A DNA stretch of 59,508 bases, filler included, from Thelocarpon superellum (lineage: Eukaryota): NCBI GenBank assembly GCA_026025795.1. It is 2 parts of 2 records of this genome, joined end to end, with 100 filler letters (N's around TTAATTAATTAA, not from the genome) between each part and the next. Parts side by side here need not be neighbours in the genome. Positions count along the whole stretch, not along the records: positions 29,853 to 59,508 come from JAPEUG010000214.1; 1 more part is not named here. One strand, written 5' to 3'. Below are positions 46,508 through 56,812 of the stretch, piece after piece (position 1 is the stretch's first letter; each line of letters begins with the position of its first letter). Under the pieces are notes generated by a model that was not told the DNA's origin, made no database searches, and saw nothing but the letters and a program-made list of their open reading frames with translations. The position numbers and the translations under genes are program-made.

Positions 46508-49500
46508 ATGGCTGCTGCGGATCGTGATGTTCTGCCCGACTCGTGAGTACACTCCTCATGTCTCGATCTGATCCGCAATGACTGAGCGGATGTCTAGGGT
46601 CAAGCCGATCAATTACGCCATCTCTATCCACGACATCGAGCTCGGTGGAGCGTACAGCTACCAGGGCACCGTGCACATCGATCTTGACGTCCGCAAGACG
46701 ACCAAGGAAATCGTTGTAAATGCTCATCAGCTTCAAATTAAGGAGGCTCAAGTGTTCCTTGAGCATGGAAAGAGTTGGTGACCCGTGAGAATGCGCACGC
46801 CTCGTACTAATGCGTCCTGGGAGCAGCTCAGCAATCCATCAAGGCCTCGGATATTTCCTACCAGGAAAGGTCTCAACGAGCGACGCTCACCTTCCCTAAC
46901 CCCATCGCGGCACCCGGAAAGGTGGTCCTCCGTCTGGACTACAGTGGTACCATCAACAATGTCATGGCAGGCTTCTATCGATCCAAGTACAAGCCCGCGG
47001 CCCCACCCGTCCCATCGGTTCCCAAAGACGACGAATACCACTACATGTTTAGCACGCAATTCGAGTCGTGTGATGCGCGGCGCGCCTTCCCGTGCTTCGA
47101 TGAGCCCAACTTGAAAGCGGTCTTTGACTTTGAGATTGAAATTCCGGACGACCAGGTGGCCTTGAGCAACATGGATGAAAAGGAGGTCAAGGCCAGCAAG
47201 CCCGGATTCAAGGTGGTCTCCTTCAACAAGACGCCCATCATGAGCACATACCTCCTGGCCTGGGCCTTTGGCGATTTTGAGTACGTCGAGGACTTCACCA
47301 AGCGCAAATACAACGGGAAGTCCTTGCCCGTGCGCGTCTACACGACCAAAGGACTCAAGGAGCAGGGCCGATTCGCACTGAAGAATGCCCATCAAGTTGT
47401 TGACTACTTCTCCGAGATCTTCCGGATCGACTATCCCCTTCCCAAGGCCGATCTCCTCGCCGTCCATGAATTCTCTCACGGCGCCATGGAGAACTGGGGT
47501 CTCGTCACCTATCGGACCACCGCCGTGCTCTTTGACGAGGCCAACTCCGACGCCAAATACAAGAACCGCGTGGCCTATGTCGTTGCTCACGGTAAGCCAT
47601 GACGAGTGTTCCCCCCTTTTCTCGTTTGAGCAGGGTACTGATGAGGAACAGAATTGGCCCATCAATGGTTCGGAAACCTCGTGACGATGGACTGGTGGAG
47701 CGAGTTGTGGCTCAACGAAGGCTTCGCCACCTGGGTGGGCTGGCTGGCCATCGATCACCTGTACCCTGGTGAGAGCTCTGAGACGACGCCATGACGCCGA
47801 CTGAGCTGACCCATAGCTGGCGATAGAATGGGATGTGTGGGCGCAATTCGTCACCGAGTCGGTGCAGATGGCCTTCCAGCTCGACTCGCTGCGGGGTTCG
47901 CATCCGATTGAAGTGCCGGTCAAAGATGCACTGGACATTGAGCAGATCTTTGACCACATCAGCTATCTAAAAGGCAGCTCCGTCATCCGTATGTTGAGCG
48001 GACACTTGGGTGTGGATCCATTCCTTTTGGGTGTGTCCAACTATCTCAAGGCACACGCCTATGGTATGGATTTCACGCTTCGATCCACATGACATCGCCT
48101 TGTCTTACTGAGGAACATAGGAAACGCGACAACCATTGACCTCTGGAAGGCGCTCAGCGAGGCCTCCGGACAAGATGTTCCACATTTCATGGTAAGTCTT
48201 TCACGTGTCCATTTTGTGATGTAGATGAGTCCCGCGCTCACCAGCGCAGGATGATTGGATTCGCAAGATTGGCTTTCCCGTCGTGACGGTAGCGGAAGAG
48301 CCGGGCCAGATCAGCGTTCGTCAATCACGATTCCTCTCAACCGGAGACGTCAAAGCCGAGGAAGACCAGACGACGTGGTGGATCCCACTGGGGTTGAAGT
48401 CGGCCTCGCAAACGTCGCCGGCGTCCGCTGGAGCATTGACGAGCAAGGAAGACACGGTCCGGGAGGTGGATGATGGCTTCTACAAGCTCAACAGCAACCA
48501 GACTGGCTTCTATCGCACGAACTACCCACCCGCGCGGCTGGCAAAGCTGGGGGCAGCCAAGGATCAGCTCACGGTGCAGGATCGCATCGGTCTGCTGGGC
48601 GATGCCGCCGCATTGGCCCAGGCGGGTAACGGCACGACGGCGGGCCTGTTGGGCTTCGTGGAGAATTTCAAGACGGAGGAGAGCTATCTGTGCGTAAGCC
48701 GGGACCAGATCGTGATGATGGCTGACGAGTCTGCAGGGTATGGAATCAGATCGTCACGTCCATCGTCAACATTCGATCCATCTTCGCTGAAGACGCGCCG
48801 GTGCGCGAGGGTCTCCGCAAGTTTACCCTCGACCTCGTCACCCCGGCGGCCGAGAAGCTCGGGTGGGACTTTGATCCCAAAGAGAGCTTCCTGACGGGTC
48901 AGCTCCGTGCCCTGCTCATCTCCGCTGCCGCAGGTTCGGGACATCAAGGGTGAGTGTGAGCATGAAAGTTGAGGTGAGGCCAAATGGCTGACGCGAGATC
49001 AGGTTCATCGCCGAGGCGCAGCGTCGATTCGAGCTGTACTTCTCGGGCAAAGACACGTCGGCCATCCACCCGAATCTTCGTCTGGCCATCTTCCGCATCG
49101 TCGTTGCCGAGGGCGGGAAAGAGACGTATGAGGCGATCAAGCAGGAGTACCTCCATACCACCTCGGTGGATGGAAAAGAAATCTGTCTGCAGGCTTTGGG
49201 CCGGGTGCCGACACCGGCGCTGGCTGAGGACTTTCTCCAGCTGCTCTTCTCAGACGCTGTGGCCATCCAGGACAAGCACAGCGGTGGGGCGTCATTGGCG
49301 GCCAATGCCAAGGTCCGCCTCTCGCTGTGGAAATACATCGAGGCCCACTGGGAGGAGGTGCACGGAACGCTCAAGGTCAACCCCGTCGTCCTCGACCGCT
49401 TCCTCAAGACTAGTCTGTCCAAGTTTGCGAGCCACGACATCGAGCAGAAGATTGCCAAGTTCTTCGCGAGCAAGGACAACCGGGGATACGACCGCGGTCT

Positions 49501-49594: not shown

Positions 49595-50351
49595 GGGATG
49601 GGGGACGATCGACAGCGGTATCGAACATGATGGTTGAAGATCGACATAGTCAGCTAACAAATCGCTAGGTAGCCGTCCGTCTTACACGCTGCTCCTACTC
49701 CAGGAGTAATGGAAAATAGGTATGCGTAGTGCTCGTAGCTAGCAATGGATAACCATGAGCGTCGTGACCGATCGTATCTGATCCGGTGGTGCCATCTGAC
49801 ACCAATCGTCTACCGTAATTTGGTAGGTCGATCTCGTGACCGTCTCGTCCGTCGACTCAGACGGTGGCGCCGAGTGGCACTACTCCAACGCGCTAACCAA
49901 AAGTGGGGCACTAGCGCAGGTCAGCCATACGTCGAAGGAGGACAGAAGGAGGGAAGACACCGGACGACTGTAGGAGCCCTCGGTATTCGCGGTCATAGGC
50001 GTAGTCTTGTCGCTAGAGGACGAGTACGAGTCCCCGTGGTAGTACCGGCACTGTGTACCTCCAGGCGGCCACGGAGATCATCCAGGGCGAGAGCGAAAGG
50101 CAAAGCCAAAGCGAAAGCGAGACGGGTACTGGCGACAGCGTCACCTGCAACGACCACCTCCTTCACCCGCCATCGTCTCCGCCAGCCCTGTCTCCATCCG
50201 TCCATCACAACCACCACAACCATCACATCCACCAGAACCGACCCGTCATCTCCTCCGCCTGTGTCTCTGCCGCCGTCGCGTCTCGCCACGCTCTCTCTCT
50301 CTCCTCTCCTTATACCCAGTGCAGCCCGTCTCCTCTCTAGCGTTCATCATC

Positions 50352-51277
50352 ATGAATCCCGAGTAGTATGTGATGCACCACACCCTGGCCGACGTGGGCG
50401 TACGCCGTCGATGACCGTCTACGCTGCTGACCCGCTGCTACGTGTAGAGTGAACCACGATCACCTCCTCCCTTGTCGACGCGTCGGCTCCCAGGGCCGCG
50501 CAGACTGACGTCCGGCTCTAGATACGATTATCTCTTTAAGCTGCTGCTCATCGGTGACTCGGGCGTCGGAAAGTCGTGTCTGCTGCTGCGGTTCGCCGAT
50601 GATACCTACACCGAAAGCTACATCTCCACAATCGGCGTTGACTTTGTGCGTCGTACCCGGGTACCCTACTCTCAGGATGGAGGCTGACGAGGCCGATAGA
50701 AAATCCGAACGATCGAGCTCGATGGCAAGACGGTGAAGCTGCAGATCGTACGTCTCGTTCTGGCCATGGGTCCGTCCGGCTTCGTACTGACGTGAATGAA
50801 GTGGGACACGGCTGGTCAGGAGCGTTTCCGCACCATCACCTCGTCGTACTACCGTGGAGCTCACGGCATCTGCGTCGTGTACGATGTGACGGATATGGAT
50901 TCCTTCAACAATGTCAAGCAATGGTTGCAGGAGATTGACCGATACGCCACGGAAGGCGTCAACAAGCTCCTGGTCGGCAACAAGAGCGACATGTCGGACA
51001 AGAAGGTGGTCGAGTACACGGTGGCCAAGGTGGGCGTGATCCGCGCGGGGTCTGAGTATGGGGATCTGACGGACAATGATAGGAGTTCGCCGACAGCCTC
51101 GGCATTCCCTTCCTCGAGACGTCGGCCAAGAACGCATCCAACGTCGAACAAGCCTTTTTGACCATGGCCCGGCAGATCAAGGAGCGGATGGGTACGACGA
51201 CGGTCAACAACAAGCCCACCGTGCAAGTTGGGCAAGGCCAGGGGGTGCAGTCGGGTGCAGCCGGAGGTTGCTGTTAG
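50352..51277 (+). CDS. YPT1: Rab1/Ypt1 small GTPase
   Basis: [66 protein letters not shown]-terminal GGCC prenylation motif. Confidence 0.98.
50363..50521 (+). other. Nested spliceosomal twin intron (stwintron, [D3,4]) in YPT1
   Basis: GA|GTA[GTATGT...GCTGAC...TGTAG]AGTGAAC...ACTGAC...CTCTAG|ATAC. The internal intron 50366-50447 splits the external donor GTA/AGT. Confidence 0.8.
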
Positions 51278-51955
51278 ATGGCGAGGCCAATCTCAGAGGC
51301 GAGACGTCGTTGCTTGACTTGGATCTCCACCGGGACACCATGACCATGACATGACGTAAAGGCAAACTCTGTCCGGGGGTGTGGGTGTCCGTGTCCGTGG
51401 CCTGGTAGTGACACGATGGTGGTAATCATTTGGGAGGAGACCAGGGGAGGGGGGTGAGAGCGAACGCGGAGTCAGTCATCCAACCACCCGTGCATTGATG
51501 CGCCTTATGATTCCCATCGATGGGTCTCAGCCATGCGATTGATCGAGTCGTGCGTGAAATGCCTCGTGGTTTTACTTCCTTTCCTCCCTCGGCATTGTAT
51601 TTTTCTGCGCCTTGACTTGACGGATTGTTGCAATCTGATGCTATGCTTGAGAGTGCGTGATCCTCGATCCTTTGATCCCTTGACTCGTGATTTCTACATG
51701 TATGTCATGATTTGAGATTATAGAAGATCATGTCAGAGAGAAGAGCTGTTCGTAGGGGAGAAGATATTCTCATAAGAAGACACGAGTATCCATCATCTTC
51801 GATAACAAGGATCGCCCGCAAGTATCAAATGCAGCGGTAAAAGTTGGATCAGTACTGGCTCGATCGACCGGACAATGGGGTCAATGTGGACCATTCGCCC
51901 TACCCCGTCACCATCCCACCGTCTACCACTCACCACTCAGCATCAGCAGCCCAGA

Positions 51956-53935
51956 ATGTCTCGAGCAGCCGCCATTGAAGCAGAGCATTACTTTCAAACC
52001 GAGTACGTAGGGTCTATCATCTCCTTGTAAACGCTCTCGTACATTGACCTACACGACGCATCTGATCTCCATCATAACCGCCGCTATGACGCGTGAAGGT
52101 TTTCCGGAAATGATGCACTGAGTCACCTTGAGTCGACATGCCAGATGATGATGATGATGATGTGAAGCTAACTTGGAGAATCTCTACGCAGGACATCCAT
52201 CGCCGAAGCCAAACGCAAGAGGGCAAAATTCGCCAAGCACAAGTCCAAGGGTGATGCGGTCAAGTTGGCCAGTAAGATCTTGGCTGTGACCACCAGTGTT
52301 ACGGCGAGAGCAGAGGGCGGCGAAGGCGAGGTTAATGGGGAGGAGAACAGCGTCTACGTGGCCGAGAGTGCGGGGGTGGTGCGAAAGGTGCTGCTTGATG
52401 TGGGTGTTAGCTGTCTATTGAACAGTATCCCGCCTTCTGTCTCTGCCCTATTCCTCTCTGTCCACTTTTCACTCCCATCCCGGGAAGATCCAATCAAGGC
52501 CGGGAGCGATACTGATGTGAGGTGGAGCGCAGAGCAAAAAAAAAAGCCGCGTGTTCCGTGGTCCCACTGCCCCCCTCACCAGCGTGGTGATTTACAAAGG
52601 CCTAGTGGTGGCAGGAAGCTGGGACAAGACGATCTGGACGTGGGACCTGGCGAGTGGAGAAGTCAAGCGGCGGTTCCAGGGGCACACCGACTTCGTCAAG
52701 GCTGTTTTGTGCGTTCCGTGCCGACTACCACCTTTGATTGAGTCAGGCTGCGGTCGAGGGGTGGCGCAGCCACACGCAGGAGAGACAGAAGGGAAGGAGG
52801 CGAAAGGAAGAGAGCAACGAGGGGAACGACCAGTTTCCGATCTTCTCATCTCCGCGAGTGCAGACGCTTCAATCATCGTCTGGGACTTATGGAGCGGGGA
52901 GCGGTTGTGTACGCTCAAGGGGCATGCGCGGGGGGTGTTGGACCTGGCGGTTGACCATTTCGAGGACTGTTCTGCCCCTCATTCTGCCTCCACTTCTTCC
53001 ACTTCTCCCGCTACCGCCGACACCACCACCACCACCTCCTCCACCAGCAGTATAACACTCTTCAGCAGCGCCAGCTCGCCGGAGATCCTTCGCTGGCGAC
53101 TTGACATCAGGCCGCGCGCCACCGCTAACGGGCCAACCGGCACGAACAAGCCACCCGTTGTCGTGACCGCGACCCAGATCCAACCCGACAAGCCCATCCT
53201 CGCGCACGAAACAAGCGTGTACCGGCTCCGATTCGACAACGACGACGACGACGGCGACTTGTGGACCGCGTCGGCCGATAAGACTGCTAAATGTCTCTCG
53301 CGTGAGCGCGGCTGGGAGGCTGATACGATACTGGTCCATCCTGACTTCGTGAGAGACGTCGTTGTCGTGGACGAGAGAGGGCTGGTCGTTACGGCGTGTA
53401 GAGATGAGGAGGTCAGGGTTTGGGATAGAAGTGTGAGTGCTTTCTTTTCCCCTTCTTGTTTCCCCCGCTTCCCCTCCCCACTCTCTTTTCCCCTTTCTCT
53501 CTGCTGATATCAAGAGCGAGGATTGGCGGAGACCAGAGCGGAAACCTACGACACAAATTCTCAGGCCACCATGAAGAAGTGACGGGCCTAGCGCTCCTTC
53601 TCGCACGCCCATCGCCGCCATCTCCGGCGAAAATAGCGAGTGTATCCATCGACGGCTCCATTAGGACCTGGTCTCTTCTGGAGGCTGATTGGATCGTTGA
53701 TCCTGATCCTGATCCTGATCCTGATCCTGATCCTGCAGTTGCAGTTGCAGGTCGAGATGGAGGTGCAGGTGCAGGTGCAGAAGAGGAGGGGAAGAAGAGC
53801 GCCGACGGAGGTGGTCTCACGGAGAACAACGAGCACGAAGAGAAGACGGGTAAGAAAGATGCGACGTCGGTGTCGGCGTTGATGACAGAGGATGAAGAAC
53901 GCGAACTCGCGGAACTAATGGACGATGAGGAGTAG
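51956..53935 (+). CDS. Conserved fungal WD40-repeat protein of unknown function
   Basis: MSRAAAIEAEHYFQT|...KLASKILAV...VYVAESAG|...FRGPTAPLTS, AGSWDKTIWTWD, GHTDFVKAV, SASADASIIVWD, GHARGVLDL, AHETSVY, WTASADKT, HPDFVRDV, TACRDEEVRVWD, GHHEEVTG, SIDGSIRTW, MTEDEERELAELM; three introns. Confidence 0.88.
52144..52161. repeat. (GAT)6 microsatellite in intron 1 of the WD40 gene
   Basis: gatgatgatgatgatgat just upstream of the GCTAAC branch site. Confidence 0.85.
53699..53734 (+). repeat. (GATCCT)6 coding microsatellite encoding (DP)6
   Basis: Six perfect units in the last exon of the WD40 gene, followed by GCAGTT and GCAGGT units. Confidence 0.92.
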
Positions 53936-54151: not shown

Positions 54152-56812
54152 CTAATACTCAGTCAACCTCAATTTCTTACCGACGTTTCTCCTCGCCGCT
54201 GCCGCTGCTGCTGCCGCTTCCTTGTGCGCCGCCGCCACTTTATCCTCCTTCTCGCCGCTGCCTCCTGCTCCGCTGCTTTTGAGGGCCTGGAGAAGCTGTC
54301 CGGCGTCGAAGAAACCATCTTCATCGTCTCAGTCAGCCCTTTACACCTCAAGCATGAGACATGCATGCAGAATAGAAGTGACTCACATCCTCCAAGCCCA
54401 TCTTCGTCGCTTTCAGCCTGCACTTCTTCCGATTCCGGAGTCTTGCTGCCTTTCACCGGGGCCCCCTGGACCGCTCGACCGCGACTCTTGACTCGGCCGA
54501 GCTTGTTGTTTTGCTCGTCGACTTCGCGCGCTCGACTGGACGTGGGCGATGATCCTTGCCGGGTCGTCGTGCGGAGTAGCTTGCGGATCTCGAGGAGGTA
54601 GCATTCGATCGCCTCGACGAATCGCTTCGTCTGACGATGCTTGGACGACGCGCAGATGGAAACCGAGTCTTCTTTGATGATGTATCCGATCCCGAAGCCA
54701 TCGGCTGATGTCGGCCCAAACCCGAATTGGCGGAGTGCCGGATTGCCGCAGTTGGAGGTCGAGAGGATCGTGTTGTTCAGCTTCTCCCATCCTGGATCGG
54801 CGAAGAGGGCCGGTAGATGCTGAGCTGGCTGTCGTCTCGCGGGACTCCCCCCTTGCGAGATATCGTCCGAAAGCGGGTCGGTGCCCGAGGAACGACCTCC
54901 CTCCGAATCTGCGTCCGCGGGGGTTGACCTTCCGTTGGAACTTCCGCCCCCACTGCTGGCGGCTTCGGCGCCCTCCTCGTCCAGGGCTCGCTGCCAGACG
55001 CAGAATAGGGCGTACAGATGCCGATCTTGTCCTTGGGCCTTGGCACATTGCCGCGTGACGTTGGTATGTTTGGCGCATGCCTTTCTCAACGCATCCACCT
55101 TCTGGACCGCCGGATTCTCTCCCCAGAACGTCCGCACAAAGGCGGCCGCCTCCGACGTGACGGAACGAATGGCCTCCGTGCGGCCGTGCAGATAGATCTT
55201 GGTCATGGCCGGCTCGTAGGTGCACTCGACTCGGCCATACAAGCCGTAGTATGCCGCCTGAAAGGCCATCTGAACGTAGGCGTCGGGAGAGAAGCCCATG
55301 GAAGTCATGAAGGTTTTCCCGTACGCGCTGAACTCCAATGTCTGGAACTCATTCTGTTGGATCAGATCGGCCAGCCGCGTCTCGGCGAAGCGGAGAGCCG
55401 TGTTCAACTCCGGGATCATGTCCCACTCCAACTTGTGCGGCGTGGTGTTGACGTCGCCAAAGCTGTCAGGATCCCGTTTCGATGGGTCCGGACTGGTCGA
55501 GGCCCAGAGACTCGGGGCTTGTCCGTTGATGGTCCGCGCAAATCTTAAGATCGTGTCCGTGTACACGTCGCTCGCCATGCGCAACACCGTATGCCCGTCC
55601 ACGCCGGTGTGCTCAAAGTTGATTCCGGCACTGCCGTTCTCGCACACGATGATCTGCAGCTTGTCATACCAGCGATTGGTACACGTCCCCACCTGCACCC
55701 CCTTCACGATCTCGCTGGTACCACACAGCATGTTCGTGCAGAGATCGGCCCCGGATTGCGGCGAGGTGTAGTCCAAGCACAAGATGAACAAGGCCGAGTC
55801 GACGATCCCCAAACAATCCGCATTGTTGGAATCTTCGTCACGCGTCAGAACATCGCGGAGACCGGCCCAGATCTTCCGATTCTCGGTACTCAAGACACCC
55901 ACGGCGGCTTTGGCTGCTTCTTGAATGGGGATCTGCGCCGCATCTTCAACAATGACCTTGAGATTGACCGCCACGTCTTTCTCCGTCATGATTAGATCAG
56001 AGTTGTCGTCGAGCACATCGAACCAGTAGAACTGTCCTCGACATAGCACGACCATGTGCTTGGACGTAGGATCTTGTCCGATATGACATCCATTCTCCGT
56101 CGGCACCCGAGCCGTGCCAAAGATTCGAGAGTATTGGTACATGCACAAAGGTTGACCCCGGAGTGTGTCCGGGGGTAGCTCCTCTTTCCGAATGGCCCGG
56201 ACAAAGGACAGGGCCGAGATGACGAGTGACGCCGCCCGCGTAACTTGGTTGTTCCGAGCCGGGGTGGGGTCATCCTCCAAGAGAAAGCTATGAGATCAGC
56301 ATGACCCTGAAACGAGTGGAGGTGTTTGGCATCTCACAATGGATTGAGGTTTAGAACAACGGCTGAAGATGGCATTAGTGAGATAGCAAGGGAGCGGATC
56401 AGGTCGGGACTCACGATTATCAAAGTTCAAATACGAGTCGTACCCTGAGCCGATCAGCTTGGGAAACAGCTCTTGTCTGAATGGACCTACAAAATTGCTC
56501 AATGTAACTCGACTTTCCCGTCGAATACTTCTTGAGGCGTTCTTGCAGGAGCGGACCTTCGGAGCGGAGAAACTCTCGCACGGCCGCCTGGGTCTCCTCA
56601 TGCTCGCGATCATTTTGGAGAGGCCGTAGGGCTTCGAGATATTGCTGACATGTATTCTTCAGGTCGGGGATGGGAAGCTTCGGAAGCCGATCTTGAGCGG
56701 CAAAGGTGATGCCGGGCTTGGAGGTGGTGCCGTGATGGGCCAGGGGGTCTTTAGCTGCCGGCGAGTAGGCGTAGGATGCATTCATGGCGCCATCTCGTGC
56801 ACGGCGAGACAT
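54152..56812 (-). CDS. YAT1: Carnitine O-acetyltransferase, Yat1/FacC type
   Basis: GITFAAQDRLPKLPIPDL, YIEQF|WYDSYL..|PVVLNLNPF|FLLEDDP, TCTNRWYDKLQ, GINFEHTGVDGHTVLR (catalytic His), SPDAYVQMAFQ, YEPAMTK..LHGRTE, LSTSNCG, GFGPTSADGFGIGY; spliced end YGFFDAG...VGKKLRLTEY*; four introns. Confidence 0.95.

Follow-up and report, generated by a model that had tools for sequence, protein, structure and literature searches.

Among natural phenomena, spliceosomal twin introns (stwintrons) show most clearly that intron definition by fungal spliceosomes proceeds in small units, one after another, and they are used as models of intron gain and loss. The donor-disrupted ([D]) stwintrons of fungi, in which an internal intron lies within the donor of an external one, have been studied by Flipphi, Fekete, Karaffa and co-workers. 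The accessible sections of two papers give the demonstrated types as [D1,2], [D2,3], [D4,5], [D5,6] and [A2,3], together with the looser [D6,7] and [D7,8]; the [D2,3] type was found in bioDA, [D4,5] in a reticulon-like gene of Lipomyces lipofer and [D5,6] in rtnA (PMC5639578; PMC7138796). Almost all known stwintrons are [D1,2] and the other types are rarely met, according to the sections seen of a recent paper (PMC12403724, 2025), and the [D3,4] type is named in the accessible part of PMC9024468 only as a conceivable [D] type, in a figure legend. Here, the first intervening sequence of the YPT1/Rab1 gene in a 59,508-nucleotide (nt) stretch of the genome of Thelocarpon superellum (GCA_026025795.1; hereafter the window, with the gene in the part from JAPEUG010000214.1) is compared with these systems. 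This 159-nt sequence (50363-50521, + strand) is very probably a [D3,4] stwintron that would be removed by two ordered U2-type reactions, a reading supported by its anatomy, by shuffle statistics and by its conservation in relatives.

The coding part of YPT1 exon 1 (50352-50362, +) consists of the start codon (50352-50354) and a further 8 nt, with GA at 50361-50362 ending the exon after the second base of codon 4, and the P-loop exon 2 (50522-50645, +) follows the intervening sequence. The interval opens with GTA (50363-50365), the first 3 nt of the split external donor, and continues with an internal intron of 82 nt (50366-50447) that has its own donor GTATGT (50366-50371), branch site GCTGAC (50426-50431) and acceptor TAG (50445-50447). 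The internal branch A is at 50430, 17 nt from the 3′ end of the internal intron, with a spacing of 13 nt between GCTGAC and TAG. The remaining 74 nt (50448-50521) form the 3′ part of the external intron and contain AGT (50448-50450), the last 3 nt of the split donor, the branch site ACTGAC (50504-50509) and the acceptor TAG (50519-50521). The external branch A is at 50508, 13 nt from the end of the interval, and 9 nt separate ACTGAC from TAG. All of these elements are on the + strand. At the level of the sequence the outer donor reads GTAGTA before and GTAAGT after the internal excision, which leaves an external intron of 3 + 74 = 77 nt. As in the strict definition of a [D] stwintron, there are two nested U2-type introns, each with a donor, a branch site and an acceptor at workable spacing, and the internal one interrupts the 6-nt external donor between nucleotides 3 and 4. 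Read from the sequence, the unspliced RNA contains four codons followed by TAG, and an intermediate from which the internal intron had been removed would contain four codons followed by TAA. The original prediction for this locus had proposed the same interval, internal intron, branch sites and acceptors, and every one of its coordinates is exact; its statement that both the unspliced RNA and the intermediate read MNPE-stop also holds.

The quality of the outer donor was compared with that of 16 other introns of six genes, with lengths of 50-110 nt. All 16 control introns carry a G at +5 and none of them starts with GTRGT. The unspliced outer donor has a T at +5 in 6/6 loci, and after the internal excision it fits GTRWGT, with a G at +5, in all six. 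GTAGTA at 50363 fits the donor consensus only at +1 to +3, the exon end that precedes it is non-consensus, and a strong competing donor (GTATGT) begins 3 nt downstream of its start. On its sequence, GTAGTA is predicted to be an unusable donor, and the earlier description of a poor outer donor that the internal excision turns into a perfect one agrees, at the sequence level, with the change from GTAGTA to GTAAGT and with the 16 out of 16 controls with G at +5.

The nested geometry was scored as a donor-like hexamer at +4 and a CTRAY branch site located 8-40 nt before a YAG that is followed by WGT, with both units at least 45 nt long. For the window intron this geometry was reproduced in three out of 200000 shuffles in which the GTA was fixed and the rest shuffled, and in 48 out of 20000 shuffles in which the first 9 nt were fixed. 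The corresponding values for five strictly matching relatives (described below) are 1-7 out of 200000 and 102-251 out of 20000. Furthermore, a degenerate pattern of the full geometry has one match on both strands of the 59.5-kb window, at 50363, exactly where YPT1 needs an intron, and 100 block shuffles of the window gave a mean of 0.03 matches. A chance origin of the nested geometry is unlikely, given its rarity among shuffles and the single pattern match in the window.

Related loci were collected in a metagenome scan with exon 4 as the query, from which the best 80 of 565 relatives were kept; tblastn covered L001-L010 only, and all 80 loci were scanned with a regular expression for the exon 2 start. 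The exon 2 start was matched in 34 of the 80 loci (46 loci had no match). The start codon is contiguous with exon 2 in 15 of these 34; being either transcripts or genes without introns from other lineages, these loci are uninformative on the intron. Seven loci have an acceptor at the same position and in the same phase before exon 2. One of them (L005) is cut off upstream and was not judged; L002 also comes without the 5′ part of the gene. Every one of the six judged loci displays the [D3,4] layout, in which GTR leads into an internal donor at +4 and, beyond an internal branch site, WGT comes directly after YAG. Five of the loci (L001, L003, L004, L006, and L007) match under strict criteria, and L035 was judged by eye.

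The lengths of the two units vary among these loci. Compared with 159 nt in total, 82 nt internal and 77 nt external in the window (rebuilt donor GTAAGT), the respective values are 235, 99, and 136 nt in L001 (GTATGT), 180, 69, and 111 nt in L003 (GTAAGT), 261, 183, and 78 nt in L004 (GTGAGT), 192, 60, and 132 nt in L006 (GTAAGT), 192, 81, and 111 nt in L007 (GTAAGT), and 163, 63, and 100 nt in L035 (GTGAGT), with internal introns of 60-183 nt among the strict relatives. The first half of the split donor is GTA in four relatives and GTG in two, the three nucleotides directly after the internal acceptor are AGT in five and TGT in one, and the rebuilt donors of the six are GTAAGT (3), GTGAGT (2), and GTATGT (1). 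The sequence ATGAAYCCNGA directly precedes GTR in 5/5 close relatives. In an alignment of six intervening sequences (L035 left out) the intron interiors are unalignable, and invariance is confined to the exon ends, the greater part of the first 9 intron nt, the final AG and three isolated columns. The identity at third codon positions of exon 4 is 0.41-0.67 across all locus pairs; the synonymous sites of these loci are near saturation, and the loci are deeply diverged instead of close copies.

The best matches of the C-terminal tails are Sordariales-like for L001, Cercospora-like for L003 and lichen- or Eurotiomycete-like for L004 and L006, and for L007 a read-through peptide is similar to the N-terminal part of a gene model from Cudoniella. 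These taxonomic placements are weak because they are drawn from short protein tails. L035 (2028-2800) is a divergent Rab1-like gene on an AT-richer metagenome contig of 345 kb; its exon 4 is 76% identical, its N-terminus is different, its introns are in the same positions and its layout is GTG|GTAAGT...CAG|AGT. It may be a paralogue or else an orthologue from a distant lineage. Overall, the comparison suggests that the stwintron is ancient and widespread in an essential gene.

Spliced sequences of relatives were found in two runs (X1 and X2) that each share 0.05 of the sampled words with the window and were aligned at 80% likeness over 50250-51350. Each contains dozens of distinct spliced Rab1-like contigs with 80-95% likeness (57 and 60 records), and the runs look like mixed-community RNA instead of RNA from one organism. 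The contigs are a mixture of spliced sequences of other fungi in which introns 2-4 are skipped at the predicted borders, and these intron-skipping joints argue for RNA. Three X2 contigs, from relatives and not from this organism, carry ...ATGAATCCCGA directly before 50522. For relatives, this favours the predicted outer borders and mature junction, and it has no bearing on the intermediate; the logic of the gene would require the same mature junction in the window. The joint of 50365 with 50448 is not among the listed X1 and X2 joints, and no contig covers 50250-50508.

A two-step mechanism can be proposed from this arrangement. Intron definition pairs first those good splice signals that lie closest together, and the 82-nt internal intron would accordingly leave first: GTATGT at 50366, the only 5′ site of good quality, would pair with the nearest branch point, A50430, and with the TAG ending at 50447, and an 82-nt lariat would be excised. 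The ligation would join GTA (50363-50365) to AGT (50448-50450) and thereby create a GTAAGT donor directly after exon 1. In the second step this donor would pair with A50508 and the acceptor ending at 50521, a 77-nt lariat would be excised and GA would be joined to A, completing codon 4. An intron-definition rule of this kind is invoked for filamentous ascomycetes in the available passages of several stwintron papers (PMC12403724, PMC5639578, PMC7138796). The order of splicing and the intermediate would thus follow, in this organism, from the positions of its splice signals. The arrangement could have originated by a 3-nt (GTA) duplication of an older donor, which the GTA-GTA start fits; such an origin would be akin to the 'stwintronisation' model put forward in the sections seen of PMC7138796. 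Its persistence may be explained by the loss of any internal signal inactivating an essential gene, an argument that the authors of the bioDA study make for that stwintron in the part of PMC5639578 consulted.

Alternative splicing solutions were enumerated as all GT/GC-AG excisions after which translation from the start codon reaches the P-loop exon in an uninterrupted frame. The window permits four single-excision solutions with an open frame (three besides removal of the full interval) and nine solutions with a middle exon. The original prediction had stated that all alternatives lead to a stop or a frameshift, and the three further single-intron and nine two-intron solutions show that this was overstated; the most credible of them is the 84-nt intron at 50366-50449 considered below. 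Removal of the complete interval is the only open-frame single-excision solution common to all six loci tested, and it is the sole one in L003 and L006. The alternatives in the other loci use non-homologous acceptors and would encode unrelated peptides, and no alternative of the window is common to the relatives. Splicing from the internal donor to the outer acceptor would retain GTR, and translation would end at once with GAG TAA or GAG TGA; this applies to the window and to 6/6 judged relatives.

Several other arrangements were considered and rejected. Recursive splicing with a zero-length exon does not fit, as the internal acceptor is followed by AGT or TGT, never by GT, in all seven sequences. 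U12-type introns have a highly conserved RTATCCTT-type donor and a matching branch element; none of the donors in question (GTAGTA, GTATGT, GTAAGT) is of that type, and they are accompanied by CTGAC-type branch sites. Both ATGs within the interval run into a stop, which excludes them as start codons, and a first step from 50363 to the internal acceptor would leave no usable donor, with the frame then meeting a stop. The donor-split [D3,4] reading of the original prediction is the only one that explains all the data, namely the conservation in 6/6 relatives, the donor controls and the sole common solution.

One competing explanation is a single ordinary intron of 159 nt, with GTAGTA at 50363 as its weak donor and 50521 as the end of its acceptor, in which the internal signals would be incidental. 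The resulting mature mRNA would be identical, complete removal keeps the frame in all loci, and annotators have evidently drawn such an intron, as the first four residues are correct in some public gene models. The nested arrangement described in the accessible text of the Lipomyces study can also be removed in one step, though the upstream donor there is canonical (PMC7138796). In YPT1, such an intron would have to use a donor that fits the consensus at three positions after a non-consensus exon end, with a G at +5 in 16/16 control introns and a strong competitor 3 nt away. Furthermore, it leaves unexplained why an internal branch site and YAG|WGT are kept, at workable spacing, in 6/6 diverged relatives with unalignable interiors; given the first 9 nt, these internal 3′ signals arise in 0.2-1.3% of the shuffles per locus. 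A single ordinary intron is regarded as very unlikely. A main product formed through an 84-nt intron (50366-50449, donor GTATGT, acceptor GAG), which would give a Rab1 with a 25-residue insertion after residue 5, is extremely improbable. The frame is open in the window, and several public fungal ypt1 models have comparable N-terminal insertions or extensions before YDYLFK. However, this intron requires a GAG acceptor 2 nt past a TAG acceptor, an equivalent is absent in L003 and L006, the other loci have non-homologous acceptors and unrelated peptides, and the spliced contigs of relatives join ATGAATCCCGA straight to exon 2. The odd public N-termini end in R before YDYLFK, as from read-through of the acceptor AG plus A, and look like prediction artefacts. 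As a side observation, the frame through the 84-nt intron is kept in this organism only and is not conserved, and it would be an easy choice for a gene predictor.

A further possibility is that both routes are used and that a regulated share of the transcripts stalls at the intermediate or is misspliced and is then destroyed through the early stop, which would tune the output of Rab1. In the window, a stop is met at once in both the intermediate and the misspliced form, for the misspliced form this extends to 6/6 judged relatives, and the available part of PMC12403724 reports occasional one-step missplicing of [D1,2] stwintrons. However, the stop follows automatically from GA + GTR + A and need not be selected, and the conservation is equally explained by an essential gene that is locked into the arrangement. 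Such tuning is unlikely as the overall explanation, and the gating of expression by the second splicing step, suggested in the original prediction, is conceivable but speculative. A number of points count against the [D3,4] stwintron reading itself. The X1 and X2 contigs come from other fungi and the run type is recorded only as guessed RNA, and for this organism the intermediate and both lariats are deduced from the positions of the splice signals. The in-frame 84-nt intron, with its good internal donor and its GAG acceptor, exists in the window and would add 25 residues. Only six relatives were judged, their taxonomy comes solely from best matches of short tails, and the six loci share ancestry and are hence not six independent trials. 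L003 and L007 have CTCAC variants as their external branch sites, and L035 has a degenerate internal one.

The YPT1/Rab1 gene as a whole spans 50352-51278 (+) and was rebuilt from a reading of the sequence over 49900-52200 as five exons and four introns, with intron lengths of 159, 54, 54, and 53 nt, the first being the longest. Exon 2 is joined to exon 3 (50700-50747, +) in the spliced contigs of relatives (50645 to 50700) across intron 2 (50646-50699, +, 54 nt, donor GTGCGT). Intron 3 (50748-50801, +, 54 nt, donor GTACGT) precedes exon 4 (50802-51029, +, 76 codons), and intron 4 (51030-51082, +, 53 nt, donor GTGGGC) precedes exon 5 (51083-51278, +), which encodes the CC prenylation motif and contains the stop codon; these three introns serve as canonical controls. 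The product after splicing has 201 residues and ends in CC. Exon 4 matches the Pfam Ras family (E = 1.6e-28), its peptide is 100% identical to many proteins annotated as Pezizomycotina GTP-binding protein ypt1, and the spliced protein is 98-99.5% identical to annotated ypt1 over 197-198 residues (best among 120 proteins listed). The Ras-family domain, the near-identity to fungal ypt1 and the C-terminal double cysteine are thus all present in the predicted protein, and on the basis of the family match and the near-identity the host gene is identified as the YPT1/Rab1 gene of a filamentous ascomycete.

A CT-rich tract is located at 50295-50320, approximately 35-55 nt 5′ of the YPT1 start codon, and there is an A at -3 of the ATG; both look like ordinary features of a fungal promoter or leader. 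The upstream neighbour is a fragment of an M1-type aminopeptidase (ERAP1_C, 48229-48894, +), and the downstream neighbours are a WD40-repeat gene (52521-53507, +) and a carnitine/choline acyltransferase gene (54169-56295, -). According to their Pfam lists, two gene models of lichen fungi have ypt1 fused to an aminopeptidase (P0119) or to WD40 domains (P0117). The presence of the same neighbours in these fused models suggests conserved synteny and gene-model fusion.

Among public fungal ypt1 models, wrong N-termini and fusions with neighbouring genes are common. YDYLFK is preceded by no more than 70 residues in 33 of the proteins listed; of these, 21 have unrelated extensions, 11 start with MNPE and one has another four-residue start. 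The list is biased, since a length above that of the 76-residue query was required in the search. Models with odd N-termini include P0043, P0046, P0050, P0052, P0066, P0068-P0071, and P0074. In many extensions the last residue before YDYLFK is R, which acceptor read-through would produce, and two clusters with such extensions represent 207 and 280 member sequences. The short first exon together with this intron is a plausible cause of the wrong models, and a known structure would let annotators correct ypt1, which is a widely used marker gene.

Most described stwintrons are young and species-specific. With the YPT1 stwintron, an old and broadly retained example would be available in a gene that is essential, single-copy and highly expressed, where tests in model fungi would be easy. 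In its widest form, the interpretation is that intron 1 of YPT1 is the first documented [D3,4] stwintron, that it is ancient and that it makes the Rab1 of most filamentous ascomycetes depend on ordered two-step splicing, with a built-in stop that disarms misspliced and half-spliced transcripts; this wider interpretation is favoured by a small measure over its negation. It includes the proposal that the layout has been kept in Sordariales-like, Cercospora-like, lichen-/Eurotiomycete-like and Helotiales-like lineages, as judged by the YPT1 tails, and in the divergent L035. If true, the [D3,4] case would complete the series of donor-split positions, being the only one missing among the published types, and its GTA-GTA start is in line with the origin of stwintrons by duplication of donor nucleotides.

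The status of the subtype was assessed in the literature. No [D3,4] example was found in the stwintron literature when searched by third/fourth-nucleotide wording, a search in which the bracketed type names were unsearchable and which did not extend to the founding papers of 2013 and 2015. The terms ypt, Rab1, GTPase and GTP-binding are unmentioned in the main text of the stwintron papers searched, and ypt1, Rab and GTPase are likewise absent from the supplement of PMC9024468. Among the best 20 of 595 matches, no paper links ypt1 or Rab1 to twin, nested or recursive introns. The [D3,4] type can be called a stwintron subtype that is not yet documented, with the qualification that the type names are unsearchable and that the founding papers and other supplements were not covered. 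The original prediction had claimed no report for YPT1, and none was found in the main texts; for [D3,4], the legend in the available part of PMC9024468, which names it as a possible type, was the only mention. The classes that it had named ([D1,2], [D2,3], and [D5,6]) have all been demonstrated, with [D4,5], [A2,3] and the looser [D6,7] and [D7,8] in addition, and its account was broadly correct.

The YPT1 interval shares with the fungal [D] stwintrons the nesting of two U2 introns, with the internal one within the 6-nt donor of the external one, an inside-out order of removal predicted by intron definition, and small intron sizes. As reported for the bioDA, lipS and rtnA stwintrons in the accessible sections of PMC5639578 and PMC7138796, it also appears to keep its intron position within a conserved gene over a broad range of taxa. 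Unlike the published [D] stwintrons it is split between donor nucleotides 3 and 4, and whereas the published cases were verified by reverse transcription polymerase chain reaction (RT-PCR), the YPT1 case is known here from sequence alone. The [D6,7] and [D7,8] introns of Lipomyces, which are stwintrons in a wide sense, likewise have two donor-like elements a few nucleotides apart at the 5′ end, and the passages seen of PMC7138796 propose for them a duplication of donor nucleotides, which the 3-nt repeat in YPT1 would match. In Lipomyces, however, the upstream donor is complete and removal in one step is possible, whereas the upstream GTA or GTG of YPT1 would become a donor only after the internal excision.

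A broader likeness exists to recursive and nested splicing in Cryptococcus neoformans and in animals, in which more than one spliceosomal reaction is used per long intron, including in an essential gene, as described in the part of bioRxiv 10.1101/224170 consulted. According to the same source, recursive splicing uses the donor of the upstream exon first and regenerates a donor at AG|GT; in YPT1 the internal acceptor is followed by AGT and the first reaction would take place wholly inside the intron. The nested splicing described there rebuilds no splice signal, unlike that proposed for the YPT1 interval. Compared with other fungal Ypt1/Rab1 proteins, there is nothing unusual in the protein, and the oddity lies in the pre-mRNA.

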